From Candidatus Micrarchaeota archaeon (GTDB lineage: Archaea; Micrarchaeota; Micrarchaeia; Anstonellales; Bilamarchaeaceae), in assembly GCA_016932815.1 (NCBI GenBank), contig JAFGCC010000025.1, forward strand, positions 7,133-71,132: a stretch of 64,000 nt of DNA. Direction: 5' to 3'. The notes under the pieces were generated by a model, which was given only the letters and a program-made list of their open reading frames with translations, was not told the origin of the DNA and did not search any database. Below are positions 9,478 to 62,389 of this stretch, piece by piece. A program made the position numbers and the translations under genes. The number at the start of each line of letters is the position of its first letter. The stretch's first letter is position 1.

Positions 9478-9506
9478 TATCCGCAAAAACAGGAGGACCG
9501 GTTGAA

Positions 9507-12303: not shown

Positions 12304-12308
12304 GAAAA

Positions 12309-16387: not shown

Positions 16388-16477
16388 AGCCTCCAAAAGC
16401 CCCCCCAACGGGGCATCTTTATTATCCTGCCCGCAGCCGCACGCGAAGGGGGGAGGCGCCCCCCATGCTTGCGCGTT

Positions 16478-16939: not shown

Positions 16940-17017
16940 ATAAACTCACCGCACAATCCCAAACATTTGTGATAAAAGTTTATTAATCTTCCTAATCTTT
17001 GTCTGGAAAATTTGAGA

Positions 17018-17031
17018 AAAATAATAAATAC
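17018..17031 (+). promoter_or_regulatory. Putative archaeal TATA box for glnA
   Basis: AAAAATAATAAATA lies about 45 nt upstream of the glnA ATG, in a 135-bp AT-rich divergent intergenic region shared with lrp. Confidence 0.35.
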
Positions 17032-17073
17032 TTCCAAATTTCCACCCCAATCACAAACAAAAGGGTGCGAACA

Positions 17074-18399: not shown

Positions 18400-18512
18400 G
18401 CCCGCATCAGGCTGCAGCATCCTTGGGGCCGGAAGCTTCCCCCTTGAATACTGGGGGGAACTCCGGTCCCTCCCTGCATTTTGTTTTTCCTTGCTGCCTC
18501 TATGTTGCCGGC

Positions 18513-19028: not shown

Positions 19029-19131
19029 GGTTCAAGTAATTCAGGGGAAACTTTATTTAGGTTCGCAAAACACTTCCCTGCAGAGTGCAACAAACCAAAC
19101 GTTTTTATAGATTGCCTCCAAATCCCGAAGT

Positions 19132-22071: not shown

Positions 22072-22306
22072 GCGCAGGGGGAATTTCTCCCTGCCCATAT
22101 CCTTTTTCTTATTCTTGGGCCCCAAGGGGCTCCTCCAGCTTTTTTGCAGCCGCAGCCTCAATAAAGTTTATATATTTTTGCCTTGTTATCCTGCTATTGC
22201 AACGGGTGTGGGTCCGAACCGCCGCATAATGGGCATTTGCATAAAATGCGCATTTAACGGGAGAGGCGGCAGCGGATTTGATGGGAATGCTAGCATATTG
22301 CAGCAT

Positions 22307-26401: not shown

Positions 26402-26632
26402 GCCTGAACCGGGGAGGCAGAGCGCCGCCGGCACGCTGAGCGCATGGCAGCAGGGGCACACGGCAAGCGGGGCGCCCCCCTGCAATCGGCATTCCGCCTG
26501 CGCCTCCCGCTTCCTAGGAAACGGGGCGTGCGGGCGCAGGGGCATCCCGGCATTGGGCGCAATCGCCCCACCCCCGCTTCTCTGAGGGCACCCATCACAA
26601 CATTTATATCCGTTGTCTGCAATCCATTTGGT

Positions 26633-29600: not shown

Positions 29601-30325
29601 CTTCGGGTTCGTGTGCAACCTCTTCCGATTGCTCGGGCAGCGCCCCATTCTACAACTGCGAGGGCTGCTCGTGCGTTGGATACGAGTGCAATTCCGCTTC
29701 GGACTGCGGCGCAGGGTACTCATGTGAAGAAGGCGAATGCGTGCCCCCAGAATGCACGCAGGATTCCGACTGCGATTCCTTTGGGGCAGGATATTCATGC
29801 GAGAACTATGAATGCGTGCCCCCGCAGTGCCTAAATGACTCTGCCTGCGGTGCAGGCGGAACCTGCTCAAACTACGTTTGCATCCCCCCAGAATGCACAA
29901 GCAATTCCAATTGCGGTTCAGGCAAGGTGTGCGAAAACTACAAGTGCGTGCCCTGGAAATGCAAGGCCAACGCCGACTGCCAGAACGGCTTCTACTGCGA
30001 CAGCGGAGTATGCAGGAAAGAGAGCATACCCGGAGGCCCTGGCGGAAGCAGCGGGGGCAACGGAGGCTCCGGAGGCAAGCAGGCAGGTGAATCAGTTGGC
30101 GAAGCGGAAGTGCCACAGGAGCAGGAGCCAGAAACCGAGCAGGTAACCCAGCCATTCCCGTTCCTAGAAGGAGACACTGAGGGGGGAATAATCCCCAACG
30201 TAGTGATAAACGAGGAAACCAAGATTTCAGGCGGATGGGTGTTCCTATTTGCGCTTGCGGCAGTTGCGGTGCTCTACTTTGCGTTCCACAGGGGAAGGAG
30301 AAGGGGAAGGGAAAAAGAGGAGTAG
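26633..30325 (+). CDS. Large secreted surface protein, paralog 4 (internally duplicated beta-helix + module, Cys-rich repeats, C-terminal TM anchor)
   Basis: Signal peptide MCKNFVKLAVLLAFFAFSLSFA, homologous to the gene 2 N-terminus. Two beta-helix plus GSPSID/GSPNIT module units. The C-terminal Cys-rich region is near-identical to gene 2. TM helix GWVFLFALAAVAVLYFAF followed by RGRRRGREKEE. Confidence 0.75.
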   Translation: MCKNFVKLAVLLAFFAFSLSFAVDVSTCQAITSSDTYDLTTDLTGAPIAITGISQIDQACLAIQADNVVIDCHGHSISNTGVSDAAGIARNLTSTSTVTIRNCRIAYYHQGISLRYLSGGAVLNNTIFNTSHYGLSMSQSCSGTVVSNNTFHNNTDHALYIGGNSDNNIITNNTLCNTSGAFSAFNLGSNCEYNTFEGNLLYGNYVGIELGYASNNSIENNTIRNNSWHAVVMDHGGDNNLTNNIAYGNYYGFYVDPYSQGNVFVNNTAYDHIYYGFYVYRDNEGTTLINNTAYGNRYGFTVGADSHNTTLWGNTAYENEDGFSIASSDNTLTNNTAYNNTHRGFYLYTGYGNTLINDTAYNNGDEFCVIGSNYTLESFLFLNPSGSQVNYTNLSIGDIMDTSSEEYAIGWGESPGSSPSDRSSFENKYLTISAAGGSPSIDTITWHWQDSETSGYVEAMLELWKYNASGWTLLNNTPDTSANTLTQYAMSPSSTYAIFENVSVDCEVISSPGTYNLSSNLSGAPNPLSTVAGTTAACIIIASLGVTLDCKGFTITNNGTSDAVGIAVNGSSTIDYTGVAIQNCPDIHGYENGVQLYRTAAGTIRNSSMSDGRYGIYVYASQNNSITNNTVHNNSQDGIYLYSSVGNNVTGNTVHSHFSAGIALSTLSMHNNLSNNVLYNNSDPSFYISLSSNNTISNNTVYNTSGSGIYLFSSSECNLTGNTVYDSTSGIELNSNSMRNRVSGNTLYDNAMCGIWLQSSSSNNTVYDTSVSNNTYGIFALQSHDNNFTESFICNNSDYGLYMVSSYGNRLANYSIYGDQYGVYSSSSKYVLDTVSFLPYGGESVDYSALSLTDSNGAGAYRINWSATPGSSPSSRSSFENKFLNISTASGSPNITSIEWSWEDSESSGYTESDFELWKYNASGWTLLNDTPNVFSNTLTQYAMLPGSIYGIFAYETPTSTGGDDEDYSCMTSSDCPECYICSGHECVLPSGSCATSSDCSGSAPFYNCEGCSCVGYECNSASDCGAGYSCEEGECVPPECTQDSDCDSFGAGYSCENYECVPPQCLNDSACGAGGTCSNYVCIPPECTSNSNCGSGKVCENYKCVPWKCKANADCQNGFYCDSGVCRKESIPGGPGGSSGGNGGSGGKQAGESVGEAEVPQEQEPETEQVTQPFPFLEGDTEGGIIPNVVINEETKISGGWVFLFALAAVAVLYFAFHRGRRRGREKEE
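29520..30325. repeat. Roughly 0.8 kb dispersed repeat copy B (3' region of surface-protein gene 4)
   Basis: It pairs with 21290-22071. The encoded peptides differ at only a handful of positions. Confidence 0.7.
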
Positions 30326-47468: not shown

Positions 47469-48452
47469 ATGAGCGAAGCCAATCGCCCAATCCCCATCCC
47501 CGCAGGCAGGCAGAAGCCCGGCCTAAAGCGCGGCAGGCTCAACTTTAAACTAGGAAGGGGCAGCTACGGAATCAATTGGGGCTCAAAAAAGAGTAATCCG
47601 GAGGGAACAAGGAGGCTTGCGGGCATCAATTTCCATGGGCTCGCAGAGTGCCAGGCAAAAACGCAGGCAGGCATAAACCTCTCCGCAGTTTCCGTTTCAA
47701 GCCACCAGGGGCGGCACGCCGGAAGCCAGTATGGGGTGAATGCCGCACTGGCTTCAACGCGCAGGAGCACCTTTGGCCTCAACATGTCCCTTGGCTCAAT
47801 AGTTTATAGGGCGCAGTCGGGCATCAATCTTGGCGTATTCCAGTGCGGGAGGCACAGCAGCGCATCCCAGAATGGAATATCCATCGGAGCCCTCAATGTC
47901 TTTCCAAAGCAGAGGGGCATCAACATAGGAGCCCTAAATATCGCAAACCAGTTCGGGATAAATATCGGGCTTGTAAACCAGGATTCTAACCAGATTGCCT
48001 ATTGCACAAAAGGCGGCACCCGGTTTAGGGGGCAGAAGGGAGTAACCTTAGGATTGACAAATGCAGTGGACTACCAGGACGGGGTTTCCTTCGGAGTAAT
48101 AGATTTCGTCTGGATTGCGGCAAGGGGGCTAAAAATTTCCATATTTTCCTTTGTCGAGAAGCTCAGGGGGGTGGCATTGGGCGCATTCTTGCGCATAAAC
48201 GATGCAAAGGGAATGGCGCTCTCCGCAGTCTCCAAAATCGCAAACCTTACGGGGCTATCCGTATCAGCCCTTCATGCAAGCGCGCAAACCCTAAGCAAGG
48301 GCGTGCTCATTGCCCCCATAACGCGGGTGGATGAGGGCCGCAATTCAACCGGGCTCCAGATAGGGCTCCTCAACATACGCAATGATGCGAGAATCAGGTA
48401 TCTCCCATTAATCGCAATCAGCGTTAGGAAAACCGGGGATGGGCCCTACTGA
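47469..48452 (+). CDS. Hypothetical repeat protein with roughly 9 tandem GINxG-type repeats
   Basis: GINWG, GINFHG, GINLSAV, GVNAAL, GLNMSLG, GINLGVF, GISIGAL, GINIGAL and GINIGLV recur at a period of about 18-22 aa. Confidence 0.4.
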   Translation: MSEANRPIPIPAGRQKPGLKRGRLNFKLGRGSYGINWGSKKSNPEGTRRLAGINFHGLAECQAKTQAGINLSAVSVSSHQGRHAGSQYGVNAALASTRRSTFGLNMSLGSIVYRAQSGINLGVFQCGRHSSASQNGISIGALNVFPKQRGINIGALNIANQFGINIGLVNQDSNQIAYCTKGGTRFRGQKGVTLGLTNAVDYQDGVSFGVIDFVWIAARGLKISIFSFVEKLRGVALGAFLRINDAKGMALSAVSKIANLTGLSVSALHASAQTLSKGVLIAPITRVDEGRNSTGLQIGLLNIRNDARIRYLPLIAISVRKTGDGPY

Positions 48453-49031: not shown

Positions 49032-49430
49032 ATGCTCGCGGTTTTTGGCTCCTCGGATTTAAGCGCACAAGAGCTTGAAAAAAAGGCAAAAGGGGAGGGA
49101 ATCCTCCTCATAAACCCCAAAAAGGTAAATTGCCTAGAAGAGCTCAATCTGGCCGAGGCGCTCTCAAGTGCCGCAATAAGAGAGGGGAGGAACATCGCAA
49201 AGAAAGAGGAAGCGGAATTCCTTCTTTGGCTCTCTGCGAAAACCAACATAAAAAGCGCATTCGATTCCCATTCTTTCAAAACCCCAAAAGAGCTGCTCCT
49301 AGTCTCGCTCAACAAAAAGCACTCAAAGCCAAGGCTCTTAGAACTCTTCATGATGAAGGAAGAACAGCCGGAGTTAAGGGAGGAGGCGACCCCGGATGAA
49401 ATAGAGGGAATCTCGCTTTCAAGAATCTAG
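49032..49430 (+). CDS. Possible Cgi121-like KEOPS subunit
   Basis: VFGSSDLSAQELEKK...LINPKKVNCLEELNLAEALSSA...EFLLWLSAKTNIKSAF resembles the Cgi121 pattern. This is a weak assignment. Confidence 0.3.
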   Translation: MLAVFGSSDLSAQELEKKAKGEGILLINPKKVNCLEELNLAEALSSAAIREGRNIAKKEEAEFLLWLSAKTNIKSAFDSHSFKTPKELLLVSLNKKHSKPRLLELFMMKEEQPELREEATPDEIEGISLSRI

Positions 49431-49479: not shown

Positions 49480-51180
49480 TCAGGCGCTTCCTTCTTTTAG
49501 CCCCTCAAGGAGCACGTCCTCATCAATTGGCAGTTCGATTCCCAGGAGCTTGTGTATGAACATGAAGATTTGCACGACTTTTTCGGTGTCCTTGGAGGTC
49601 TGCCTCGCCATCTCACGAAGGTCCATGTCCTTGCCGATTAGCTGGTAGAGCATTACGCCCTCCCTGCCGTATCTCTTGTAAACAGAATACCCGTCTTCCC
49701 CGTATTTCCTCTGGATTTCGGGGCGCGCGGCGGGCTCTAGTTTCACAACCCCGTCGCGCTGCAAAACATCCAGTATCTCGCAAACAGTATAGAGGGGCAG
49801 CCCGGTTTTTATGGAAAGCTCCACCGCGTCCCGGCTCCCGTTGATTAATTCAAGCACCTTTACACCCGGCTGCTTGTATTTTAGCATAAGGTTGGTCTTT
49901 GCCTGGAGCTCCTTTATCATCCCGCCCCCGACCTTGTTTGGCACTGTGAGGGTAAATGCCTTCCCTTCCTCTCCCCCAAGCGGCTTGTCGGGGGTGCTCT
50001 GCTCTTCTAGCATCGGCGCAAAGCCGATGTCCGCTTTGGCAGTGGCCGCAGCGGAGGATGCGGGCGCCGATGGCCCGGAAGACGGCTTTTTCGCCCCCGG
50101 GTGCTCAAGCTTGATTATGCCCTCTTTCTCCATGAAATCGAGCATCTCAATTAGCGTTTTCTCGGTTACCCCGGTTGAGCGCATAATCTCTTCTGCGGTC
50201 CTCTGCCCGTCTATTAAGTTATATACCTTGATTCCCTTCTCCCCGTATTTTGCTTTTATCTTCTTCTCTCCGGGGGTAAGGAAAATGTCCTCTTCGTCTT
50301 CTTCTGAGGATTCCTCACCGGGGCCTTCCCCGCTATCTGGCGCAATCTCCCTCTCGGAAGTGCCGAATTCCTCCTCCCCAGGCTCCTCCTTTTGCTTCCC
50401 CTTCTTGGGCTTTTCCTCCTCTTCCTCTTCGGCAGGCTCTTCCGGCGCGGCTTCCTCCTCGCCGAAATCAAGTGGCATTAGCTCGTCTTCTTCCGCCGCG
50501 GGAGCCTCCTCCTCCTTTGCAGCAGGCTCAGGCTCCTCCTCTTGCTTCCCCTCCTTGGGCTTTTCCTCTTCGGCGGGCTCCTTGGTTTCCCCCTCCTTGG
50601 GCTCCCCTTCCTCCTCTTTCTCTGCGGCCTCTTCCACCCCGAATTCCATTTCAGGGCTGATTTCGGAGTCGTCTCCAATGGGCGTTATCTCCTCTTCCTC
50701 CTCCGGAGCTATTTCCTCTTCGGGAGCAATCGTTATGGGGGTTGGCTCCTTGGGCTTGCCCTTCTTGGGTTTTGGCTCCTCCTCTTCCTCCGGCTCAGGC
50801 TTCTCCTCTTCCTTCTTCCCGGGCGCCTCCTTCTCCCCCTCTTTTTCCTCTTTTGCAGGCGCCTTCTTCGCGGGCTCTTCCTCTTTGGCTTCGCCCACGT
50901 CCTCAATCATCCCTTTTTTCTCAAAGAAGCCTAGTATCTCAAGGACGTCTTTTTTCTCCATGCCGGTTTTCTCAAGGAGCTCCTTTACGCTGATGCCGCT
51001 TTTCCTAACTGAGCGGTATACTTTTAGCCCGTCTTTCTTGAATTTCTTGAGTATTATGTTCTGGTTCTTGAATTTCTGGAGGCTGTTTTTCTCAACCTTC
51101 CGGATTTCCCTTGCGAGTTCCTTGTCGCCTGCCATTTTTTTCGTTTTCTCCTGCTGCTCTTGCGAGTTTACGCATAACAT
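49480..51180 (-). CDS. Hypothetical protein with four repeats of a roughly 50-aa winged-helix-like module separated by very long acidic Glu/Pro/Lys-rich low-complexity linkers
   Basis: The repeats are KKFKKDGLKVYRSVRKSGISVKELLEKTGMEKKDVLEILGFFEKKGMIE, KYGEKGIKVYNLIDGQRTAEEIMRSTGVTEKTLIEMLDFMEKEGIIKL, KYKQPGVKVLELINGSRDAVELSIKTGLPLYTVCEILDVLQRDGVVKL and KYGEDGYSVYKRYGREGVMLYQLIGKDMDLREMARQTSKD. An alternative start is at 51135. Confidence 0.5.
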   Translation of the reverse strand: MLCVNSQEQQEKTKKMAGDKELAREIRKVEKNSLQKFKNQNIILKKFKKDGLKVYRSVRKSGISVKELLEKTGMEKKDVLEILGFFEKKGMIEDVGEAKEEEPAKKAPAKEEKEGEKEAPGKKEEEKPEPEEEEEPKPKKGKPKEPTPITIAPEEEIAPEEEEEITPIGDDSEISPEMEFGVEEAAEKEEEGEPKEGETKEPAEEEKPKEGKQEEEPEPAAKEEEAPAAEEDELMPLDFGEEEAAPEEPAEEEEEEKPKKGKQKEEPGEEEFGTSEREIAPDSGEGPGEESSEEDEEDIFLTPGEKKIKAKYGEKGIKVYNLIDGQRTAEEIMRSTGVTEKTLIEMLDFMEKEGIIKLEHPGAKKPSSGPSAPASSAAATAKADIGFAPMLEEQSTPDKPLGGEEGKAFTLTVPNKVGGGMIKELQAKTNLMLKYKQPGVKVLELINGSRDAVELSIKTGLPLYTVCEILDVLQRDGVVKLEPAARPEIQRKYGEDGYSVYKRYGREGVMLYQLIGKDMDLREMARQTSKDTEKVVQIFMFIHKLLGIELPIDEDVLLEGLKEGSA

Positions 51181-51474
51181 TCCCCATAATCTTTATTAAC
51201 CCGTATTCTCCCTTCCCGCCGCGGAAACGCCCCGCCCGCAGCGCGCAACCATCTCCAGCACCCTCCTTCCCGCCCCCGCCGGCCATGGGGATGGCCGGCG
51301 CTGTAGAAAACATGTTTGGGATGGGGCATCAGGGCAGTTTCGGGTTTTGCGTTGCGGGTTGTGCGCTCCCTCCAGAGCCCAAAACCCTAAACCCAAAACA
51401 AGGGGGCCAGGCATCCTTTCTACAAAGCCGGGATGACCGAAATCTTTTAAATACAAAATGCAGGATTAGCACGC

Positions 51475-53193
51475 ATGGAAATGGAGGACCTCCTAATAAG
51501 CACGGGTGTAGATTCACTCATACGCCTCGTAAAGGAGAGGGGGAAAGTGGAGCTCCTAATGGCCTCCGAACTCCTGGGCCTCCCGCAGGCAACCGTGGAG
51601 GACTGGGCGCACATTCTCGAGGAAGAAGGCATAATAAAGATAGACTACCAGCTCACAAAAGTCCATTTCGTCTGGGTCCCCCCGACAGCCGAGGAAATAG
51701 AAACCAAGAAACAGGTTTTCCAGAGGCGCAAGGGCCAGCTTGAAACCGACATCTCAACGCTTGAGGAAATCCAGGAAACCGGCAAGAGCGAACTCCAGGC
51801 ATACTCGGACGTTCTTGATAAAATCTCGGACAAGTTCTCCAAGGACTTTGAGAAACTAGACGAGCTATCCAAGCAGATTGAAACCGCCAGGGGCGCAAAG
51901 GAGGAAGCCTCCCGCGCATCGCTGGAGAAGATGGAGGGGTTCAATTCCAAGCTGGATGACATGGAGGAATCCCTGCAGGAACTTGAGGCCCAATTAAAGG
52001 GCGCGTCCAGGGATTTCGGGAAATCCGGCGCCAAGGACAAGATGGGCTCAATTGCAAAGTCAAAAGAGCACATAGCCGAACTAGGCGCAAAGCTAGACGA
52101 GCTTGCAAAGCGCGTGGAAACCCTGGGGGGCAAGAAAGGCTCCGGCGGCAAGGTGGACGTAGGGAGCGTAAAATCCGACTTTGAGGCCATGCGCAAGGAT
52201 TTCGCCCGCGTGCGCAAGGAATCCGAAACCCTTGGCTCGATGATTTCGGAGTTCAAGGCAAACGCGGACATGATAAAAGAGGCCATGCCCCACATAAAAC
52301 AGCTCTCAAGCGGCGCCGCACGCGCCAAGAAGGAGCTGGAAGCCGAATACGCGAAACTGGAATCGCTCAAAAAGGAGCTGCCCGCACTTGAGAAGCACAT
52401 AAAAGACGACCTTGAAGTGGCAGGTCAGTACGCGGAAACAATCCGCATCGCCCACGATGTCCTAGACAAGGTCCCCTCAAAGGGGGAAATCCTAAAGCGC
52501 ATGGACGCGCTTGAGAAAGAGGAGGGCCGCATGGCCTCCGAGTTCCGCAAGATGGAATCCCTGCTCTCTGGAGTAGAAGGCAGCGTCCTCTCAATTGGCG
52601 ACCTCATGGAGGAGCTTGAGGCGATGAAGGATGAAATTGAGGGCGCCCGCGAGCAGCTCTCATCCGATGCGGAAGAGGTCCTCTCCTCAATAGAGGAGGA
52701 AACCTCCACCTACTCAACATTCCAGAAGATAAAGGCAAAGGCAAAGACCTCAATAGATGCATACCTCGCCCAGCTTGCGAAAATCCGCAAGGAGAGCGCC
52801 CAGATAAAAAAGGAAATTGAGGAGGCCGAGAAGGCGGGCAGGGACAAGGCGCAGGAGCTATCCAAGTCCGTTTCCCCGCAAACCGCCAAGGAGGCGCTTG
52901 AACTAGTGGAGCAGCTCCGCAAGAAGAGGGAGGAGCTCCAGAAAATCCGCAGGCTAATATCCGATTTGCACTCGCGCTCCAGCATGATAGAGAAAAACGT
53001 AAAGCTGCTATCAAAGGAAGCCAAGCTAATATCCCTCCGCGAAGGGGGGCAGGGAGCCCCTGCCAAAAAGGGGGGTTTGGAAGCGGGCAAAACAAAGGAA
53101 AAAGCGGCGCTAACTACCGAAGAGCAGCAGGACTTCGAGCGCAAAAGGAAGGAATTAAAAAGCCTAATACGTAAGTTATGGGAATCCGACTGA
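51475..53193 (+). CDS. Coiled-coil protein with N-terminal copy of the same winged-helix-like module; first gene of the pilus-type locus
   Basis: The N-terminus LLISTGVDSLIRLVKERGKVELLMASELLGLPQATVEDWAHILEEEGIIKI is followed by about 500 aa of heptad-rich, charged sequence. Confidence 0.5.
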   Translation: MEMEDLLISTGVDSLIRLVKERGKVELLMASELLGLPQATVEDWAHILEEEGIIKIDYQLTKVHFVWVPPTAEEIETKKQVFQRRKGQLETDISTLEEIQETGKSELQAYSDVLDKISDKFSKDFEKLDELSKQIETARGAKEEASRASLEKMEGFNSKLDDMEESLQELEAQLKGASRDFGKSGAKDKMGSIAKSKEHIAELGAKLDELAKRVETLGGKKGSGGKVDVGSVKSDFEAMRKDFARVRKESETLGSMISEFKANADMIKEAMPHIKQLSSGAARAKKELEAEYAKLESLKKELPALEKHIKDDLEVAGQYAETIRIAHDVLDKVPSKGEILKRMDALEKEEGRMASEFRKMESLLSGVEGSVLSIGDLMEELEAMKDEIEGAREQLSSDAEEVLSSIEEETSTYSTFQKIKAKAKTSIDAYLAQLAKIRKESAQIKKEIEEAEKAGRDKAQELSKSVSPQTAKEALELVEQLRKKREELQKIRRLISDLHSRSSMIEKNVKLLSKEAKLISLREGGQGAPAKKGGLEAGKTKEKAALTTEEQQDFERKRKELKSLIRKLWESD

Positions 53194-53203
53194 TGGTGAA
53201 TCA

Positions 53204-55087
53204 ATGGCCAGGAGCAAGAAATCATCCAAAAAACCGGGCAGCAAGCCTGCCTCAAAGAAGACCGTAGAGGAAATAGTCAAGAAAATCAAGGAATCCCGGG
53301 CCATGAGGGAACGGGAGGTTCCCGCAGATGAGCCCGAAGATGATGAAATGCCTGCATTGGAACCCTCCAGCAGGAAAGAAGACTTCCCCCGCATAGAAGA
53401 CGAGGGCGTCCCCCCGCTTGAAGATTCGGAAGAGGAAGGCGGGGATGATGGGGAAGACGATGATGAGGATGAAGGAGTGCCCTCGCCATCAGTGGGCGCT
53501 GCGCCCCCAAGCCCTTCTGAGAAAGCAGAAATTCCAAAAGAGCTTGAAGTTGCGGCAATGGTTGAGCGCACACAGGAGTTTGAGCCCATTGCAGAGAGGC
53601 CCGCCTCCAGGCACAAGGTCCTTGATTCATACACTTTCCTAAGCGAGGCAATCCCGGTTGAAATCTCCATACTCCGGAAGGAGGATTTCGTGCCCATCTA
53701 CTCAATTTCAATCCCCGGAATCGCGGGAGGCACCAAGCTCCTTTTGGAAACCAAGCTCCGGGCAGAGCTGATTTCGGATGTGAAACTCGACATAACCGAA
53801 ATCCTCGACCCAAAGAAGCAGCAGATGGTCAAGGCGAAATTCCAGGATTCGGCCATGCGCGTATTGGGCAGGAACTTTGCCCAGCTCCCGGAATCCAAGA
53901 TGAGGATTCTAGCGTCCTACCTAATCCAGAACACCCTGGGCCTAGGGGAACTGGAAACCCCCCTCCACGATGACTTCCTAGAAGAAGTCGTTGTCAACAA
54001 CTCCCGGGACCCGGTCTGGGTTTACCACAAGAAATACGGCTGGTGCAAGACCAACCTCCGCCTAAAAAACGAGGAGCGCATCTACGATTATGCGGCACTC
54101 GTTGCAAGGAAGGTGGGAAGGCAGATAAACATCCTCTCTCCGCTGCTTGATGCGCACCTCCCAAGCGGGGACCGTGTAAATGCAACCCTGTTCCCGGTTT
54201 CCAACTACGGAAACACGCTTACAATCAGGAGGTTCTCAAGAAACCCCTGGACGATTACCAACCTGATTCGGGGCAAGACGATAAGCCCCGAGGTCGCCGC
54301 CACAATCTGGCTGTGCGTGCAGAGCGAACTCTCATTGGTAGTCGCAGGAGGGACCGGAAGCGGAAAAACCTCGTTCCTAAACGCCCTCTCCGGGCTAATC
54401 CCGGCAAACCAGAGGATAATCTCAATTGAGGACACAAGGGAGCTTACGCTTCCTTCATTCCTGCACTGGGTGCCCATGGTCACAAGGGAGCCAAACCCCG
54501 AAGGCAAGGGTGAAGTCTCCATGCTTGACCTGATGGTCAATGCGCTGCGCCAGAGGCCCGACCGCATAGTTGTCGGAGAAGTCAGGAGGCAGAGGGAAGC
54601 GGAAGTGCTCTTTGAGGCGATGCACACCGGGCACTCGGTATACGCAACCCTCCACGCGGATAACGCCCAGCAGACAATCAGCAGGCTGGTGAACCCGCCA
54701 ATCAACGTGCCGGAGGAGAACCTGGATGCACTTGCGGGCGTGGTCGTCCAGTACCGCCAGAGGAGGAAGAACGTGCGCAGGACCCTTGAGTTTGCGGAAG
54801 TGCAGAAGATGGGCAAGCTAAACACCATCTACCGCTGGGACTCCAAGCGCGATGTGACCGTGAAATCCGGCAACCTCAGCTCAATTGCAAACACGATCGA
54901 ACTCTACTCCGGGCTTACCCCCAGGGAGATAGATGCGGAAATATTGGAGAAGGTGTCCGTCCTCAACTGGATGGTCAAGCACGGCTACGAAGCCGTCAAC
55001 GAGGTAGGTTCGATAGTTTCCCATTACTACCGGGACCCAGAAGAGGTTCTCGGTGCGGTAAAAAGGAAAGCCAAATGGGAGTTCTGA
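53204..55087 (+). CDS. Archaeal FlaI/ArlI-like type II/IV secretion ATPase (GspE/VirB11 superfamily) with acidic N-terminal extension
   Basis: Walker A AGGTGSGKTSFLNAL. Asp and His boxes IVVGEVRRQREAEVLFEAMHTGHSVYATLHA. N-terminal low-complexity D/E-rich region. Confidence 0.85.
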   Translation: MARSKKSSKKPGSKPASKKTVEEIVKKIKESRAMREREVPADEPEDDEMPALEPSSRKEDFPRIEDEGVPPLEDSEEEGGDDGEDDDEDEGVPSPSVGAAPPSPSEKAEIPKELEVAAMVERTQEFEPIAERPASRHKVLDSYTFLSEAIPVEISILRKEDFVPIYSISIPGIAGGTKLLLETKLRAELISDVKLDITEILDPKKQQMVKAKFQDSAMRVLGRNFAQLPESKMRILASYLIQNTLGLGELETPLHDDFLEEVVVNNSRDPVWVYHKKYGWCKTNLRLKNEERIYDYAALVARKVGRQINILSPLLDAHLPSGDRVNATLFPVSNYGNTLTIRRFSRNPWTITNLIRGKTISPEVAATIWLCVQSELSLVVAGGTGSGKTSFLNALSGLIPANQRIISIEDTRELTLPSFLHWVPMVTREPNPEGKGEVSMLDLMVNALRQRPDRIVVGEVRRQREAEVLFEAMHTGHSVYATLHADNAQQTISRLVNPPINVPEENLDALAGVVVQYRQRRKNVRRTLEFAEVQKMGKLNTIYRWDSKRDVTVKSGNLSSIANTIELYSGLTPREIDAEILEKVSVLNWMVKHGYEAVNEVGSIVSHYYRDPEEVLGAVKRKAKWEF

Positions 55088-55096
55088 GGCAGCAAA

Positions 55097-56779
55097 ATGG
55101 ATTTTCGCACGGCAACGGATGAAGTGTACCGGGTTGAGCAGAACGCAAAGGAATACGTTCCCCCAAAGGCACAAATGCAGGAGGCCAAGCGCCCCCTTGA
55201 GCTCTCGCCCCCGGACATAAGCGAAATGGAGTATAAAGACATAATCAGCCAGTATATGCGCCTAGAAAAGATAATTAGCGCCTCAAGCATGGACATGGGC
55301 CTTGGAGGCAGGGGGGGAGCGCCCTCTGCGGCAGCCCCTTCGGCAAAGAAGGTCGCGGAAGTGGAGCAGGAGATGCAGAAAATCGCAATCAAGGGCGCAA
55401 AGGAAGCCGCCCAGATTTCCGCCCCAACCCCCCAGGCAAAAGAGGAGCTTGAAGTCTCAAAGCGCCTCCCAATCACTTCTAGCGGGGCTGAGCGCGAAGA
55501 GCCTGCTTACGGGCCAGAGCCCGAAGAGGAGCCCAAGCCTCCCGAGATTCCCGCGGAGGCAGGGGAAGAAGAGCCCCAGAAGACCGTTGGGGAAGATGAG
55601 ATGGAACTCCCGTTTGAGGAGCCTTCAGCAGAAGAGGGAGAGGCTCCCGCAGAAGCAAAGGAGGAAGAAGAAAGCTGGGAAATCCCCTTAGAGAGCGGGG
55701 GCGAGCCAGCACCTTTGCAGGAGGCAAAGGAGCCGGAGCCCCCCAAGCCCCCAGAACCTACGGAAGAATCCGCAGCGGCAGGTGTGCCCTTCGGGTTTGA
55801 GGAGCTTCCAGATGAGATGCCCTCAACTTCTGCAAAACCTTCCGCCAAGGAGATGGGCATAACCCCGACAATTCGCATACCCGTTCCCGCATTCTTGTCC
55901 GAATCCCCAATAGAGAAGGCGGAAGCCGCAATCTCCAGGCTGGAAGTGCAGGTTGGCGCCCAGATGACCGGGAAGAAGACCAAGAAAGTGGATTCTGCCG
56001 AAACCAAGAAGCGCATGCTGGAACTAACAAGGGAACTCTTCAAGGAGCGCTCAATGAACCGCCGCGCGGAAATCAAGAAGGAAATAGTCATGCTAAAAGA
56101 GCTCCTCACCAAGGGAGGCAAGGGAGCCAAGGCCAAGAGCGGCGGCCTCCCGGAAGGCTCAATGTATTCTGCCCTCCGCAGCGAGCAGGATTATGAATTC
56201 AAGGAAGCCCTTGACAAGGTCCAGGAAATCTATGAGGAAAACAAGAAGATGCTCGTTTCCGCAATGGACGCAAAGCGCGCAATAGAGCACCGCGAGCCCG
56301 CATTTGAGGCATTCTCCAAGAGCATGGTGGATTTGGAGCAGGGGCTTGATTTGCTTGTGGACAAATACCAGGATTTCCTTGCCAAAAAGCACGTTTCCGA
56401 ACTAGAAAAGCTGGATGAGCGCGGGCAGGCAACCAAGGATTCTTCCAAGCTCGCAGCCAGCCTGGAAGACAAATACTCACGCGAGTTTTCCTCGCTAAAG
56501 AACACGATTGGGGAGCAAATCCACTCCCAGATAGAATCCACCCGCGCGGTGCTCTTTGAGTCCGCGGGAGACCCCGCGGCACAGAAGCTCTCGCAGGTGG
56601 CAAACGCTTCGGAGGAAACGGTATTCAACTTCCTCCAGGCAAGGGATTCGCGCACCTACGAGAGATACGCAAGGGGCGAGATTACCCGCGCCCAGGCCCT
56701 ATCAAGTGCCCGCAGGCTCATGGCAAAGGAGCTGGGCGTGGACGAAGATTCCATAAACAAGACATTCGGGGGCAAATAA
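55097..56779 (+). CDS. Hypothetical acidic/coiled-coil protein of the pilus locus
   Basis: E/P-rich low-complexity centre, predicted helical C-terminal half. It sits between the ATPase and the membrane components. Confidence 0.45.
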   Translation: MDFRTATDEVYRVEQNAKEYVPPKAQMQEAKRPLELSPPDISEMEYKDIISQYMRLEKIISASSMDMGLGGRGGAPSAAAPSAKKVAEVEQEMQKIAIKGAKEAAQISAPTPQAKEELEVSKRLPITSSGAEREEPAYGPEPEEEPKPPEIPAEAGEEEPQKTVGEDEMELPFEEPSAEEGEAPAEAKEEEESWEIPLESGGEPAPLQEAKEPEPPKPPEPTEESAAAGVPFGFEELPDEMPSTSAKPSAKEMGITPTIRIPVPAFLSESPIEKAEAAISRLEVQVGAQMTGKKTKKVDSAETKKRMLELTRELFKERSMNRRAEIKKEIVMLKELLTKGGKGAKAKSGGLPEGSMYSALRSEQDYEFKEALDKVQEIYEENKKMLVSAMDAKRAIEHREPAFEAFSKSMVDLEQGLDLLVDKYQDFLAKKHVSELEKLDERGQATKDSSKLAASLEDKYSREFSSLKNTIGEQIHSQIESTRAVLFESAGDPAAQKLSQVANASEETVFNFLQARDSRTYERYARGEITRAQALSSARRLMAKELGVDEDSINKTFGGK

Positions 56780-56804
56780 TCCGCCCCCAAAGCGGTGAAT
56801 ACAC

Positions 56805-57692
56805 ATGAACCAGAAACAACAAGTGACTCCCGTTGCCCTTCCGGCAAGGAACTACGCTTCAAGGAGCGCACTGCGCTCCATCTCAGAATACCTGCTCCCC
56901 TATTTCCCGGCAGTAAGGAAGCAGATGGTCTTGGGGGGAATGGCGGAAACCCCCGAGAGGTTCATGGACAAGGTTGTGCTCTCCGCACTATTTGCGGCGT
57001 TTGCGCTCACAATATTATCCTTCTCGGTGCTGCACGCTCTCCAGATGGAAACTATCCTCTCGCTCCTGGTTTTCCCGCTTTTTGCGATAATCGTTTTCTT
57101 CTACCTGATGATGTACCCCACAGTCATGGTGCTAAAGAGGAAGAGGGCGATAGACTATGAGCTCGTTTTCGCGGTCAGGCACCTCCTAATAGGAATCCGC
57201 TCCGGGATGCCCCTCTTTGATGCGATGGTCGGGGTTTCCCGCGGATATGGGGAAGTGAGCAGGGAGTTTAGCAAAATCGTGGAAAAAGTCACCCTCGGAA
57301 TGCCGATTTCCCAGGCAATGCGCGAAATCGTGCAGGTAAACCCTTCTCCCGCATTCAGGAGGGTAATGATACAGCTTGCAAACGCCGTGGGTTCCGGAGG
57401 CGATGTCGCAGACGCCCTTGAAGTGGTCCTAAACCAGATTTTCAAGGAGCAGGTAATTGAGCTAAAAGCTTATGGGCAGAAGCTCAACCCGCTAATAATG
57501 TTCTACATGATTTTCGGCATAATCTTCCCCTCATTGGGGCTCGCATTTGCGATAATACTGTTCTCCTTCCTGGGTTCTGGGAGGTTTGAGCTCAACGCGT
57601 TTGTGCTCCTGCTGTTTTTGCTGATGGTATCTGTAATACAGTTCATGTTCCTTTCAATAGTGGAGAGCTCAAGGCCGAAGTATGCATTCTGA
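56805..57692 (+). CDS. FlaJ/TadB-like membrane protein (T2SS-F domain), first half of a split FlaJ
   Basis: T2SSF-type cytoplasmic domain (VFAVRHLLIGIRSGMPLFDAMVGV...) flanked by TM helices. Confidence 0.7.
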   Translation: MNQKQQVTPVALPARNYASRSALRSISEYLLPYFPAVRKQMVLGGMAETPERFMDKVVLSALFAAFALTILSFSVLHALQMETILSLLVFPLFAIIVFFYLMMYPTVMVLKRKRAIDYELVFAVRHLLIGIRSGMPLFDAMVGVSRGYGEVSREFSKIVEKVTLGMPISQAMREIVQVNPSPAFRRVMIQLANAVGSGGDVADALEVVLNQIFKEQVIELKAYGQKLNPLIMFYMIFGIIFPSLGLAFAIILFSFLGSGRFELNAFVLLLFLLMVSVIQFMFLSIVESSRPKYAF

Positions 57693-57695
57693 GGG

Positions 57696-58766
57696 ATGAA
57701 AATGAACACGCTAATGGGTTTTTACGAAACAATCGGGAGGCTTCTCTCAAGGAAGAAAATCAAGGCAATTGAGCGCGCCCTAAGCGGGGCGGGAGTCACG
57801 ATTCCCGCAGAATCCTTTGTGGGCTTCTTCCTCATAGTGGGAGCCCTGGCATCGCTTTTCGTGTTCTTGATATTCCTGCACATCTCCGCAGTGCCAAGGT
57901 TCATATACGCGCTATCTCCAGGGATGATGCTTCCTGATTTCGCGCTCATAATCCTGAGCCTAATAGCCGCAATAGTGGTCACTTTCGGGGCAACCTTCCT
58001 TGCGTTCTGGGCGGTAATCCTGCTCCAGACGGAAGCGAGGAAATCCGCGGTAGAAGAGGTCCTTCCGGACTTCCTGACCCTGATGGCCGCCAATATCCGC
58101 TCCGGGATGACAATAGACCAGGCAATGTGGTATGCGGCAAAGCCAGAATACGGCCTCTTTTCAATAGAAGTCCGCAGGGTCGTAAAGAACGCATTCTCCG
58201 GGGAGGCAATTGAGAAATCCCTTGACAGGCTGGATATGCGCTTCAATTCCCGCGTGCTGCACAGGACCCTCCTGCTCCTAAAGCAGGCCCTTGCAACAGG
58301 GGGTGAAACCGCGGAAATCCTGGAGGAGACCGCGCAGGATGCTCGCGACGTTGCAATGCACAAGAAGGACATCGCCTCCACCCTCCTAGTCTACATCATT
58401 TTCCTGGTGTTCGCTTCCGCAGTCGGAGCGCCTTTCCTGTTTTCTGTCTCCAAAACCCTCATTGCGGTATTGGCAAGCGCGTTTGCATACATGCCCGCAG
58501 GGGGACTGGACTCCTCTGCAGGGGTATTCACCAGCTTCCTGATAACCCCCTCTGCGCCATCGGTGAGCACGGATGAATTCTTCTGGTTCAGCATGGCGCT
58601 GGTATTTGTTACTTCGCTTATAGGTTCGCTCCTGCTTGGAATAGTCCAGGCCGGCTCGAAAACCCAGGGCATAAAGTTCTTCCCGCTCATGCTGGGAGCC
58701 TCTTATGCGGTATATTTCCTGGTGTCTTCGGCCCTGGAGTCGATGTTTGCGAGTATGTTCTTCTAG
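57696..58766 (+). CDS. FlaJ/TadC-like membrane protein (T2SS-F domain), second half of a split FlaJ
   Basis: Second T2SSF domain (DFLTLMAANIRSGMTIDQAMWYAA...) with flanking TM helices. The start is 4 nt after the previous stop. Confidence 0.7.
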   Translation: MKMNTLMGFYETIGRLLSRKKIKAIERALSGAGVTIPAESFVGFFLIVGALASLFVFLIFLHISAVPRFIYALSPGMMLPDFALIILSLIAAIVVTFGATFLAFWAVILLQTEARKSAVEEVLPDFLTLMAANIRSGMTIDQAMWYAAKPEYGLFSIEVRRVVKNAFSGEAIEKSLDRLDMRFNSRVLHRTLLLLKQALATGGETAEILEETAQDARDVAMHKKDIASTLLVYIIFLVFASAVGAPFLFSVSKTLIAVLASAFAYMPAGGLDSSAGVFTSFLITPSAPSVSTDEFFWFSMALVFVTSLIGSLLLGIVQAGSKTQGIKFFPLMLGASYAVYFLVSSALESMFASMFF

Positions 58767-58783
58767 AAGAGGTGTAATGAAAT

Positions 58784-59332
58784 ATGAAAATGAAAAAAGG
58801 GCAAGCCGCCATGGAGTACCTAATGACGTACGGGTGGGCGATACTTGCAATCATAATCGTGATTGCCGCTCTCATCTACCTTAATCCGTTTAGCGCTCCT
58901 GAGCTGTGCCTGTTCCAGCAGCAGGGCTTCTCTTGCAGCGAGCCCCAGCCACAGGTTTACCTAAACGACCAGGGCGAGGTCATGATGAACGTCCGCATCT
59001 GGAATAAGCTTGGGAAGAGCATAGAGATCAAGAGGGTGTTCTGCACTACCGCGCAGACTTCCGAAGTGGACTCTAGTAATTCCCATGTGCATGTCGTTCC
59101 CGGTGATGATGGGCACTTGGTCCCCACGGGTTCGTACATGACCTTCAGCGGAGACCCCAACGCACATGATACTGGCATCGCCTGCTACAATGCAGACGAC
59201 AACGAATTGCAGCTGGCCCCGAACCAGGAGTTCCGCGGAAGGCTGATTGTCTGGTACAACTACGAGAATGACCTTGACAAGACAATCCTCCACGAATCTC
59301 AGGCAAACGTAATCTCGCTGGTAGTCGAGTGA
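58784..59332 (+). CDS. Archaeal type IV pilin (class III signal peptide, EppA/FlaK-type substrate)
   Basis: MKMKKGQ|AAMEYLMTYGWAILAIIIVIAALIYL has the basic n-region, KG followed by Q at +1, Glu at +5 and a hydrophobic stretch. It is preceded by the secretion ATPase and FlaJ-like genes. Confidence 0.7.
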   Translation: MKMKKGQAAMEYLMTYGWAILAIIIVIAALIYLNPFSAPELCLFQQQGFSCSEPQPQVYLNDQGEVMMNVRIWNKLGKSIEIKRVFCTTAQTSEVDSSNSHVHVVPGDDGHLVPTGSYMTFSGDPNAHDTGIACYNADDNELQLAPNQEFRGRLIVWYNYENDLDKTILHESQANVISLVVE

Positions 59333-59407: not shown

Positions 59408-62389
59408 ATGCCGTCTGGACCTACGAGCATTGGCAGGGTAAATTCCATCCGTGCAGTCCCAAGAAGGTGCGCATCTTTCCCCTCCACATCCATAATGGAG
59501 CCAGAGAAGCACAGCCGCTTTTATAATCTGGCGAACTTCCTAAAAGACAGATTTCTGAATGCTATTTTGACATTCTCTGCGGCAATCGTATCCAAACCTG
59601 GAACATCCGGCTTTGGGAGGAAGGGCCTGCTCTTTGCAGGCATGGTCCTGGGTGCGATAGCAGCCTCCTGTTCTTCCCCAGCCCCCAATCCGGATGCTGG
59701 CCAAACCGACCAGAGCCAAGAGATTGTGGTATCGGAGAATGTGCACGTGATTCCAGATGATCAGGCGGCACAGGCAAGGCTCCTTGGGGATGATGTGGTT
59801 TTCCCGGCAGATGGGAACGAAGACTTGATAACTCTGGATAAAGAAGACATAATCGTTTCTGGGTACGAGAGGGGGTTCCTTCGTGAAGTGAGGGGAGTTG
59901 AGGAAACGGACGATGAGATAATCCTCCGTACGAAGCAGGCAACCCTTGAGCAGGTTTTTGAGAAGGCACATTTTGAATACACAATCTCCATCAAGCAAGA
60001 AGAACAGCCTGCATCCCCAGTAACAAGTTACGCCCTGCTTCCGGAAAGGCCAGAAGATGAGATTGATAGCTCCTTTTTTTGGGATTTCAGCGGAACAGTT
60101 CTTTGCGATGGAGAGTCTAGCAAATGTGGTTTGCCACTATATGTTGAGATAGAACATGGAAGAGTGGAGTTCGCCCCCCACCTGGAAGCGGAAATTGTGA
60201 TAACCGATAATCAATTGGATTACTTTAGGTTTGAGGCTGGAGGGGACTTTGCTGCGAGTATAGAGCTGGAGGCCAAGCCCGAAAGACAACTCAAGGCGGA
60301 ATTCAAAGAAGAGATAAAGATTGGTGAATATTGGACTGTGTTCTGGACCCCTAGCGTCCCCCCAATTCCTATAGTTAACGGGACCGTAGGGTATCTGGTG
60401 CCTGGTTTCGAGATAGATGCCGGTGCGGAAGTTTCATTTGGTGCCGGAGCTAAGTCCAGTCTGAGAGTGGGGGCAGAGTACGATTCTGGAAAATGGGAAA
60501 CCATAAACGAGTTCTCTTTTGATTATTCAAGTTATGGTCCCAGTTTGGATTTTGAGGTGGGTGTGGAAGCCAAAGCATATATCTATCCAACATACTACTT
60601 CAATCTTTATGGGGTTGCTGGACCTTATCTTTACATGGGCCCGAATGCATATCTCGATTTGGAGGTATTTCCTGATTGTGAATGGGAATTGGGCGCAGGC
60701 GCATATGGGGAAATTGGGGTTCAGGTTAATGTTCTGGGAGAAACGATAGCAGGGTATGGGGAAACATTATTCAATGAGAGGGTACCGATTACTGAGGGAG
60801 TCTGTTGGGAGGGAGATAGTGCTCTGGATACCGATTATAATTTGGATACTGGAACTTGGGACGAGTTAGATACTGAAAATTGGGATAGTGGGGACGCGGG
60901 CACAGTTCTGGATGCGGGGATCCCCCAGGATACGGACACTGATTCAGAGAATGATAGTGAAGGTGATTCTGAATCAGCAGTAACTGTTGATCTGCCTGGA
61001 ACACTTGCGTGGGCAAAGCACGTTGGCAGCGAAGGTTGGGATTATCCAGAAGACATTGCAGTATTTGAGGATGGATCCTTCACACTCATTGGTGTTGTCC
61101 GGGGTAAGAATGATTGGGAGAGCATATCCTTTGGTGAGGATGAGCAAAACAGAATGGATTTGCCATACGTTGGAGGGCAGTCAGGAGATTTTTTCATTGC
61201 AAGATACGACAAAGAAGGTTCACTATCTTGGGCTAGGTCTGCCGGAAGTGCAGATGGAGATGATGCCCGGGGCGTACTTGCTCTTCCTGATGGCTCGTCA
61301 GTAGTGGTAGGGGAATTTACACGGAGCCCAGTAATCTTCGGGAGGGGCGAATCCGATGAAATTTCTTTGAGCACTGAAAAAGAATCAGATTACGTTTCTT
61401 TTGCTACAGGTCCAGGCCTTGGTTCGTTTATAGCTAAATACTCTCAGGATGGCACTCTTCTCTGGGCTGAAGCTAACGAAGCAGACTGGTGCGAAGATGT
61501 TTCATTCCTTTCCGATGGCTCGTTTGTTATGGTTGGAAACTTTAGGGGTCCCGAAACGGTTTTTGGCGAAGGAATGCCAAACGAAACAATTCTAGCCGAG
61601 ACAGATGGGTCCATTTTTATTGCAAGATATAGTTCTGATGGGGAGTTTCTCTGGGTAAAATCCGCGGGCATGGGCGGAGGAGAGCTTACTGGTCGTTCGT
61701 TATATGATAAGGTTAATGCTGTAGATTCTGTTTCAGGCGATTCAGTGGTGCTCGCAGGACACTCTACTGCGGGGGTTCTTTTCGCTAAAGGGGAATCCAA
61801 TGAAACTATGACCCGCCGTATTGATGGTTTGTTCATAGCAGAATATTCTGCAGACGGAACCTTTGGTGGTGTTAAACTGTTTGATGATGCATATCCTCAT
61901 GATATGGGGGTTTCTTCAGATGGTTCAATTCTTTTAGTGGGGGATCAGAGTCGTTTGGGGGATACTCCCTTTATTTCTAAGTATGTCTCTGGAGATACCT
62001 TCTCTTGGCTTAATTCCGTATCCGGGGAAGGGGAGGGGGTGGCATCCGACCTCGCAGTTTTTCAGGATGGTTCTTCTGCAGTAATAGGCACGTTTGAAGG
62101 TTCCGCGACCTTTGGTGAAGGAGAGGCTAATGAGACGACTTTGGATACCGGGGAGGACGCAGGAACATTTGTTGCCAGGTACACTCAAAGTGGGAGCCTT
62201 CTATGGGTAACTATGGAAGGAAATCCCGCGTATGATTTTGGCAACGCCTTGGAAGCACTCCCTGATGGTTCCCTTCTATTGACTGGAACTTTTACCGGAA
62301 GGGTTGTCTTTGGCAAAGGTACTCAAAACGAAACTATTTTGGAAGCCCCAGAGGATCGCGAGGACATCTTTATTGTGAAGTATTACTAA
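59408..62389 (+). CDS. Large secreted lipobox-containing protein with C-terminal beta-propeller-type repeats; compositionally distinct gene
   Basis: Lipobox-like LGAIAASC. An acidic D/E/T-rich linker. At least 7 repeats of the DGSxxxxGxF.......FIARYxxDGxLxW type. It is noticeably more AT-rich and uses more A/T-ending codons than its neighbours. The exact start is uncertain. Confidence 0.5.
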   Translation: MPSGPTSIGRVNSIRAVPRRCASFPSTSIMEPEKHSRFYNLANFLKDRFLNAILTFSAAIVSKPGTSGFGRKGLLFAGMVLGAIAASCSSPAPNPDAGQTDQSQEIVVSENVHVIPDDQAAQARLLGDDVVFPADGNEDLITLDKEDIIVSGYERGFLREVRGVEETDDEIILRTKQATLEQVFEKAHFEYTISIKQEEQPASPVTSYALLPERPEDEIDSSFFWDFSGTVLCDGESSKCGLPLYVEIEHGRVEFAPHLEAEIVITDNQLDYFRFEAGGDFAASIELEAKPERQLKAEFKEEIKIGEYWTVFWTPSVPPIPIVNGTVGYLVPGFEIDAGAEVSFGAGAKSSLRVGAEYDSGKWETINEFSFDYSSYGPSLDFEVGVEAKAYIYPTYYFNLYGVAGPYLYMGPNAYLDLEVFPDCEWELGAGAYGEIGVQVNVLGETIAGYGETLFNERVPITEGVCWEGDSALDTDYNLDTGTWDELDTENWDSGDAGTVLDAGIPQDTDTDSENDSEGDSESAVTVDLPGTLAWAKHVGSEGWDYPEDIAVFEDGSFTLIGVVRGKNDWESISFGEDEQNRMDLPYVGGQSGDFFIARYDKEGSLSWARSAGSADGDDARGVLALPDGSSVVVGEFTRSPVIFGRGESDEISLSTEKESDYVSFATGPGLGSFIAKYSQDGTLLWAEANEADWCEDVSFLSDGSFVMVGNFRGPETVFGEGMPNETILAETDGSIFIARYSSDGEFLWVKSAGMGGGELTGRSLYDKVNAVDSVSGDSVVLAGHSTAGVLFAKGESNETMTRRIDGLFIAEYSADGTFGGVKLFDDAYPHDMGVSSDGSILLVGDQSRLGDTPFISKYVSGDTFSWLNSVSGEGEGVASDLAVFQDGSSAVIGTFEGSATFGEGEANETTLDTGEDAGTFVARYTQSGSLLWVTMEGNPAYDFGNALEALPDGSLLLTGTFTGRVVFGKGTQNETILEAPEDREDIFIVKYY

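Follow-up and report, generated by a model that had tools for sequence, protein, structure and literature searches.

The 64,000-nucleotide stretch analysed here (contig JAFGCC010000025.1 of assembly GCA_016932815.1, positions 7,133 to 71,132; hereafter the window, in whose coordinates positions are given) belongs to the metagenome-assembled genome of a Candidatus Micrarchaeota archaeon, a tiny symbiont of the DPANN group, and carries, between 49480 and 59332, a locus of seven genes, called A to G, which by its gene content is an Epd/Tad-like archaeal type IV pilus locus with a split platform. Three of these genes, A, B and D, encode accessory proteins of this known kind of machine that are, within the databases and literature searched, previously undescribed, and the winged helix at the head of B recurs before the pilus ATPase genes of two phyla. 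Genes B to G form a tight operon with intergenic gaps of 10, 9, 25, 3 and 17 nucleotides (nt), to which gene A is divergent (Table 1). All seven open reading frames (ORFs) listed in a first-pass annotation, made by a model from the letters of the sequence, are present at the coordinates that it gave. NCBI protein JW721_06020 has exactly the sequence of the gene B product, and a Logan contig carries this locus as well.

Core pilus machinery and organization of the locus

The core of the locus, described as canonical in the first-pass annotation, does contain the components that place a system in the superfamily of type IV filaments (TFF), i.e. an ATPase of the T2SSE/FlaI/TadA family, a platform with T2SSF domains and a subunit with a class III signal peptide. 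The ATPase C reaches 127.6 bits (6e-37) on the Pfam model T2SSE (cutoff 24.9) and remains below the cutoff of the NCBIfam models of FlaI (276.6 bits, cutoff 550) and TadA (199.7 bits). It starts with a low-complexity extension of about 130 amino acids (aa; 53204-53600) rich in Lys, Glu and Asp, which is disordered and not conserved in sequence among homologues, tblastn alignments to these homologues starting only at residues ~91-140. Long acidic low-complexity segments are common to A, C and D. The platform protein E (T2SSF, 72.8 bits) aligns with positions 10-248 of the 555 of the ArlJ model and with positions 15-246 of the 484 of the UpsF model, and F (T2SSF, 57.1 bits) with positions 268-437 of the latter. 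The pilin G matches no Pfam model; its N-terminus, KKG/QAAMEYLMTYGW (also written KKG/QAAMEYLMTYGWAILAIIIV), is a class III signal peptide with the Flp-like motif G/QxxxEY (G/xxxxEY), and most of the 46 pilin homologues listed begin with the same kind of sequence, the core [KR]GQA[AV]MEYL[MI]TYG being found at their N-terminus.

Two contiguous platform genes with a single T2SSF domain each, as found here, are a hallmark of the Epd-like pili of archaea and of the Tad pili of bacteria (PMC6668835; 2026 bioRxiv census), and the April 2026 bioRxiv census reports split platforms in system 1 and 4A loci of DPANN archaea. The locus thus resembles two systems, the EppA-dependent Epd pilus known from Methanococcus and the bacterial Tad pilus (archaeal TFF 'system 1' or subsystem 4A), by its FlaI/TadA-type ATPase, by its contiguous platform genes corresponding to N- and C-terminal halves and by a pilin with a G/xxxxEY signal peptide. 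It differs from them by its gene order (ATPase, D, two platform genes, pilin), by its 182-aa pilin, which keeps a sizeable mature domain, and by A, B and D, which have no counterparts in described Epd or Tad loci. Furthermore, no secondary ATPase of the TadZ/FlaH type adjoins the main ATPase, no KaiC, ParA or MinD-type domain being detected in any gene between 49480 and 62389, whereas a KaiC-like gene is present in a related locus (L080, see below). No prepilin peptidase (PibD/FlaK/EppA) is found among the ORFs scanned in the window, whose transmembrane-rich ORFs are Yip1, MFS and FtsX; the gene may be located elsewhere in the genome. An archaellum identity was rejected, since the ATPase scores far below the FlaI cutoff and the locus has no match to archaellins or Arl accessory proteins, ArlF and ArlG included.

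The divergent promoter region carries a TATA-like box of gene B, TTTAAATA, at 51447-51454. This box lies 21-28 nt before the ATG, which suggests that the B mRNA would be leaderless or have a short leader. Relatives harbour a conserved AAAATGTTTATTAA motif at the same place 5' of B and have A-B spacers of ~70-110 bp, whereas the spacer of this locus (339 bp when counted from the probable start of A) includes about 250 bp of extra GC-rich DNA and several imperfect inverted repeats. The real start of A is probably M16 (51135), because homologues begin at the equivalent of this residue. A non-coding RNA in the long spacer was considered and rejected: no Rfam family reaches its gathering score (the sole weak match, at E 0.067, is to a miRNA model), no tRNA was detected and the fold z-scores are 0.04 and 0.52. 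As for a repeat element, one 21-mer taken from the spacer occurs once in the window.

Table 1. Features of the pilus locus and of one related gene (AF2, AlphaFold2; eWH, extended winged helix)
Feature	Position	Strand	Description
Gene A	49480-51180	-	566 aa; four eWH modules and Glu/Pro/Lys-rich disordered linkers; cytoplasmic
A module 1	50887-51075	-	aa ~36-98; hhalign vs module 2 99.3%, E 2e-20
A acidic linker	50290-50886	-	aa ~99-297; Glu/Pro/Lys low complexity, from translation; variable, mostly unconserved among homologues
A module 2	50095-50289	-	aa 298-362; AF2 helices 6-27, 32-39 and 43-55 of the fragment; hhalign
A module 3	49726-49953	-	aa ~410-485; AF2; hhalign vs module 1 97.7%, vs module 2 98.0%
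A module 4	49483-49725	-	aa ~486-566; AF2; hhalign vs module 1 96.1%, vs module 2 94.7%
Divergent A/B promoter region	51181-51474	.	294 bp; from sequence
Gene B	51475-53193	+	572 aa; winged helix and long helices; first operon gene
B winged helix	51475-51678	+	aa 1-68; AF2 and alignments
B long helices	51688-53046	+	~450 aa; AF2
B C-terminal helix	53113-53190	+	conserved, amphipathic, EFxxKRxELKxLIxKLWE; alignments and AF2
Gene C	53204-55087	+	627 aa; FlaI/TadA-like secretion ATPase
Gene D	55097-56779	+	560 aa; conserved ends and acidic Pro/Glu linker
Gene E	56805-57692	+	295 aa; platform protein, N-terminal-half type (TadC-like), one T2SSF domain
Gene F	57696-58766	+	356 aa; platform protein, C-terminal-half type (TadB-like), one T2SSF domain
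Gene G	58784-59332	+	182 aa; pilin, class III signal peptide
rpl10e-linked B-family member	L083, 7478-9377		example from another locus

Accessory proteins A, B and D

The first-pass annotation had proposed that A and B share five copies of one winged-helix-like module, four in A and a fifth at the head of B. The four copies in A are upheld. When module alignments built from 43-49 homologues were compared profile to profile by hhalign, five of the six pairs scored between 94.7 and 99.3% (1-2, 99.3%; 1-3, 97.7%; 1-4, 96.1%; 2-3, 98.0%; 2-4, 94.7%) and the last one, 3-4, 57%. An AF2 model of modules 2-4, with a predicted local distance difference test score (pLDDT) of 85.5, supports these three modules and packs module 4 against module 3. 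Judged from these comparisons, the modules are true internal repeats. They are near neutral in charge. In Pfam, A matches HTH_24 (30.0 bits, cutoff 21.9) and TrmB (29.2 bits, cutoff 25.6), these scores being summed over the repeats, and no single stretch passes. The 57 homologues found have ~150-470 aa (~400-470 aa when complete), and every one whose source is named is labelled Micrarchaeota. An identity with TFE-alpha/TFIIE-alpha, which also have an eWH domain, was rejected because neither the zinc ribbon nor other TFE features are present, leaving a fold-level resemblance at 17-21% identity; the identity with the multi-winged-helix scaffolds RPC62 and NPRL2/3 is 12-19%.

The first-pass description of the locus is largely upheld, but its claim of a fifth copy in B is right only in part. 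AF2 (pLDDT 65) predicts an N-terminal winged helix (residues 12-67) followed by long helices (72-524), then a disordered segment (525-546) and a C-terminal helix (548-571). However, the head of B does not belong to the same family as the modules of A: the hhalign probability is 85% at best (modules 1 and 2), module 3 reaching 39% and module 4 just 0.4%. A and B therefore carry related but distinct winged helices rather than one module family and, on sequence grounds, the head of B is a separate, large and unnamed winged-helix family of its own. A full hidden Markov model scan of 1.84 billion representative proteins with the B-head profile yielded 914 clusters (at 50% identity) with a threshold of E<=1e-10, and 3012 when the threshold was relaxed to E<=1e-3; a word-indexed homologue search with an 80-aa B-head profile retrieved 3 proteins only. 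In the 150 best matches of the scan, the domain is almost always located at the extreme N-terminus.

Among the homologues of B, the head and the C-terminal helix are conserved (the latter with invariant F554, K557, R558, E560, L561, L564 and W569) and the coiled coil between them is variable. The recognition helix of the head displays the consensus T-[IV]-E-[ED]-W-A-x-[IV]-L-E-[ED]-[EQ]-G in 32 sequences, with E42 in 27, E or D43 in 25, W44 in 30 and E49 in 30 of them, and the median net charge of the domain is -4. The basic residues usual in DNA-contacting helices are absent from it, as we judge by comparison with typical contact positions. A recognition helix that is conserved, acidic and devoid of such residues argues against DNA binding by the head of B.

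Two other identities of B were considered and rejected. The first, SMC/Rad50, corresponds to the name 'chromosome segregation ATPase' that homologues of B bear at JGI; only coiled-coil segments match the models (ASRP, 52.4 bits vs 300; SMC, 45.3 vs 567), and the N-terminus is a winged helix instead of an ABC-type ATPase head. The second is CdvA/CdvB (ESCRT), for which the CdvB model gives E 0.033 and 13.9 bits (cutoff 370) and PDB entry 2xvc gives E 0.41.

Gene D lies between the ATPase and the platform genes and was described at first pass as encoding an acidic protein. The alignment of 30 homologues delimits a conserved N-terminal part of 60 aa, a variable acidic Pro/Glu linker (residues ~63-262), a VPPxLxESP motif and a conserved C-terminal part of ~300 aa that is probably helical. 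D has no relatives in Pfam, NCBIfam or the sequences of PDB and, according to sequence comparison, is unrelated to the winged-helix modules. In other Micrarchaeota clades, a different protein of 600 aa is encoded at its position.

The statement that A, B and D have no obvious counterparts among the accessory proteins of known archaeal pili was borne out: none of the three matches the named archaellum, Aap or Ups accessory families, and nothing specific was found in Pfam, NCBIfam or the sequences of PDB. The arCOG-based census of 2016 lists, as cytoplasmic factors linked to pilus loci, Zn-ribbon, alpha-helical, coiled-coil (arCOG07564), KaiC, CBS and roadblock proteins (PMC4858521), and a text search finds no mention of winged-helix accessory proteins in this census or in that of April 2026. 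Two further comparisons concern B. Like ArlX (FlaX) and ArlCDE of the archaellum (PMC5019145), B would be a cytoplasmic, coiled-coil and lineage-specific protein encoded beside a FlaI-type ATPase, the archaellum proteins being thought to surround this ATPase; however, no sequence similarity was detected and, unlike ArlX, which has an N-terminal transmembrane helix, B has none and carries a winged-helix head instead. A likeness by description also exists with arCOG07564, a clade-specific intracellular coiled-coil protein of halobacterial subclade 4F pilus loci for which a regulatory role was proposed (Makarova 2016, PMC4858521) and for which no winged helix is mentioned; the ATPase of the 4F clade was also noted in nanoarchaea (PMC4858521).

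B-type genes beside pilus ATPases in two phyla

The neighbourhoods of ATPase relatives (49-87% identity) were compared in 80 genome loci from Micrarchaeota and Aenigmatarchaeota, 71 of which extend at least 1.5 kb upstream of the ATPase gene and were used to locate B. In 53 of these 71 loci, a B-type gene is found directly upstream of the ATPase gene on the same strand, with an estimated median gap of ~18 nt and several overlaps, and in six others it is located elsewhere within 10 kb. The co-occurrence with FlaI/FlaJ homologues for which the first-pass annotation proposed to search is therefore real, the linkage between B and the ATPase being kept across two phyla. The distribution of the other accessory genes is narrower: A-like genes were detected in 47 loci, as against 38 for D-like genes, and both appear confined to Micrarchaeota, none of these loci being labelled Aenigmatarchaeota. 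The accessory set is partly restricted to a lineage, and the head domain of B is, by its distribution, not exclusive to pilus loci.

B-type genes encode proteins of 70 to 600 aa. The shortest ones, of ~70 aa, consist of the winged helix alone (L060, L066 and a second copy in L080) and others carry the winged helix followed by a coiled coil of 200-600 aa. In two Aenigmatarchaeota loci (L073, 5436-6182; L079, 9208-9957), the gene preceding the ATPase encodes a pair of CBS domains (110-113 bits) followed by a C-terminal B-type winged helix, which suggests that the sensing of a ligand may be linked with the pilus ATPase or with expression of the latter. In another Aenigmatarchaeota locus (L071), B lies in mid-operon, between pilin-like genes and the ATPase gene, with overlapping boundaries. 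The locus L080, labelled Micrarchaeota, harbours two pilus clusters (9111-12360 and 18665-21278), in both of which a separate winged-helix gene overlaps the ATPase gene of the cluster (9111-9998 then 9995-11494; 18665-18931 then 18928-20397); a KaiC/FlaH-like ATPase gene (15515-16294; Pfam KaiC, 208 bits) and several pilin-like genes separate them. Across the two phyla, the winged helix is the constant element of the B-type genes that precede pilus ATPases, and what is added to it varies.

A divergent A-like gene adjoins 42 of 60 B-like genes. The A/B pair remains intact in four loci (L046, L048, L049 and L052) where it lies 5-9 kb upstream of the ATPase gene, and in three of them (L046, L049 and L052) a Cgi121-like gene is beside the displaced, inverted pair. 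In the window itself, the gene of Cgi121, a KEOPS subunit, adjoins A (49032-49430). In roughly half of the related Micrarchaeota loci, it was detected no more than a few kb from A, in many of them directly beside it, and this neighbourhood is probably inherited synteny.

Possible roles of the winged-helix accessory proteins

The reading that we favour, tentatively and with somewhat less than even confidence, is that B acts as a cytoplasmic adaptor, scaffold or regulator of the motor of an Epd/Tad-like pilus, the physical interactions in this scheme all being proposed from gene context and predicted structure. A role at the protein level is suggested by the constant position of B before the ATPase gene, the paired duplication, the varied add-ons and the acidic recognition helix. 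B would be a cytoplasmic partner of the assembly ATPase: its acidic winged-helix head would serve as a protein-protein adaptor at the ATPase, and the variable rest of the protein would provide a scaffold in the case of the coiled coil, or a sensor in that of the CBS pair. The stalk of B and its C-terminal helix may, in Micrarchaeota, form a link to A, a putative flexible hub with four eWH modules, and to D. Together, A, B and D could constitute a lineage-specific cytoplasmic layer involved in the assembly, localization or regulation of the motor, which might be functionally comparable to ArlX or ArlCDE of the archaellum.

Several observations weigh against this reading. The first-pass annotation considered that its own proposal, a new set of assembly, regulatory or anchoring factors, would be undermined by a module matching a well-characterized DNA-binding family that is routinely present at unrelated loci, or by homologous loci lacking these genes. 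The family of B has at least two context classes. One subfamily has the signature KW-x-HVLE[ED]EGY, and its members, of ~450-730 aa, comprise after the N-terminal winged helix an acidic linker and a coiled coil that leads to a basic Lys-rich tail. In 66 of 80 metagenome loci (L086-L165), a member of this subfamily is encoded directly 3' of rpl10e, the ribosomal protein L10e gene, which it sometimes overlaps. The neighbour was identified by Pfam Ribosomal_L16 (79.5 bits); one member of this subfamily, P0049, lies between the ribosomal protein L10e gene and housekeeping genes, and only one of the 80 loci has an ATPase gene adjoining the subfamily member, this locus displaying the layout of a pilus operon. 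Since a large paralogous clade is not linked to pili, the partner of the B head need not be an ATPase. Furthermore, B is absent from 12 of the 71 loci, some of which encode another large low-complexity protein instead, to be set against the 53 that have it directly upstream, and no fusion of a winged helix with an ATPase was found among the 10 long family members scanned. Finally, the winged-helix folds resemble most closely those of DNA-binding regulators: the B-head profile matches the helix-turn-helix of LrpA (E 3.8e-5), and Foldseek retrieves domains of ArsR, MarR and AspA type at E ~3e-3. B has no match to any helix-turn-helix family in Pfam. A divergently transcribed winged helix-turn-helix gene is the classic arrangement of a regulator, and CBS domains combined with a helix-turn-helix are a known regulator architecture.

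These last points would fit with A and/or B being winged-helix transcription factors of the pilus operon, A as a divergent regulator, B as an autoregulator oligomerizing through its coiled coil and the CBS-winged-helix forms as ligand-responsive versions. This main alternative is unlikely, without being a negligible possibility. The proteins share with Lrp/AsnC, TrmB, MarR and ArsR regulators a three-helix winged-helix fold and the modest sequence similarity to LrpA, TrmB and HTH_24 given above, their promoters are back to back (with ~70-110 bp between A and B in relatives), and some homologues of A are annotated 'DNA-binding Lrp family transcriptional regulator' or 'transcriptional regulator'. 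However, the recognition helix of B is conserved and acidic, without the usual basic contact residues, and the gene of B is closely tied to that of the ATPase, lying in mid-operon in Aenigmatarchaeota. No ligand-binding or dimerization domain of those families is present, and a coiled coil of 450 aa or four modules borne on acidic linkers would be atypical of archaeal regulators. The genuine Lrp/AsnC gene of the same window reaches 51 bits on HTH_24, vs 30 bits summed over the repeats for A. In the aligned upstream sequences, inspected by eye without a motif search, no conserved palindrome is obvious beyond the motif resembling a TATA box and B recognition element (TATA/BRE), this being a weak argument.

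A second alternative, which we hold to be distinctly improbable, is that A and B form a general cytoskeletal or chromosome/cell-organization module of DPANN archaea, made of a coiled-coil scaffold with winged-helix heads and merely syntenic with pilus genes. It would account for the rpl10e-linked clade, which has the same architecture down to its basic tail, for the A/B pair moving as a unit in the four loci mentioned above, in three of them with Cgi121 detected beside it, and for the loci without B, and the centromere-binding protein AspA is among the Foldseek matches. Against it speak the adjacency of B and ATPase genes across two phyla with minimal gaps, the joint duplication of the winged-helix/ATPase pair in L080 and the minimal and CBS-fused forms, which all lie immediately before an ATPase gene. 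That the pilus would be a DNA-uptake device whose cytoplasmic winged-helix proteins handle incoming nucleic acid is very improbable: DPANN archaea, which lack nucleotide biosynthesis, would benefit from it, winged helices are common in nucleic-acid binders and natural transformation of Methanococcus maripaludis depends on Epd-type pili (PMC10133366), but the winged helix of B is acidic, the modules of A are near neutral, the operon includes no OB-fold, TctA-like, nuclease or helicase gene, and the idea is purely circumstantial.

The adaptor reading of B can be extended, in a form that is rather doubtful as a whole, to an undescribed, DPANN-wide family of cytoplasmic adaptors with at least 914 clusters. 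In one branch of this family, the protein would serve type IV pilus motors as a dedicated subunit and bring to the ATPase coiled-coil scaffolds or CBS sensors, as well as A and D in Micrarchaeota. Type IV pili belong to the small number of surface machines conserved in DPANN archaea, whose way of life is to stay attached to host cells. If the extended adaptor reading were true, it would add a new cytoplasmic control layer to the pili that these host-dependent archaea use for host contact. More directly, a winged-helix partner linked to the ATPase across phyla and sometimes fused to CBS domains is a concrete candidate for the regulation or scaffolding of the motor. The rpl10e class includes one member labelled Micrarchaeota, and the two context classes therefore look like paralogues within the phylum; as the same head domain is reused in a housekeeping context, its binding partner would inform more than pilus biology. 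About 30 of the rpl10e-linked loci also share a convergent uncharacterized gene just downstream.

Some other genes of the window deserve mention. Directly 3' of the pilin gene, 59408-62389 encodes a predicted secreted or lipid-anchored protein of 964-993 aa with delta-60/DUF5122 beta-propeller repeats. The 80 related genome loci yielded no homologue of this protein, which is therefore probably outside the conserved pilus system. On the other side of the locus, 47469-48452 encodes a 327-aa protein made of numerous short repeats of the G-I-N-x-G type, which matches the NCBIfam model VC2662 weakly (43.7 bits, cutoff 140). The region 13229-30325 encodes a run of four predicted surface proteins of very large size (979-1461 aa), all carrying right-handed beta-helix/NosD repeats, to which a Laminin_G_3 domain is added in one case; a glutamine synthetase gene and a small ORF interrupt this run. 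Near the start of the window, a HerA-like gene (DUF87/HAS-barrel; 1682-3241) and a NurA-domain gene (6425-7450) lie ~3 kb apart.

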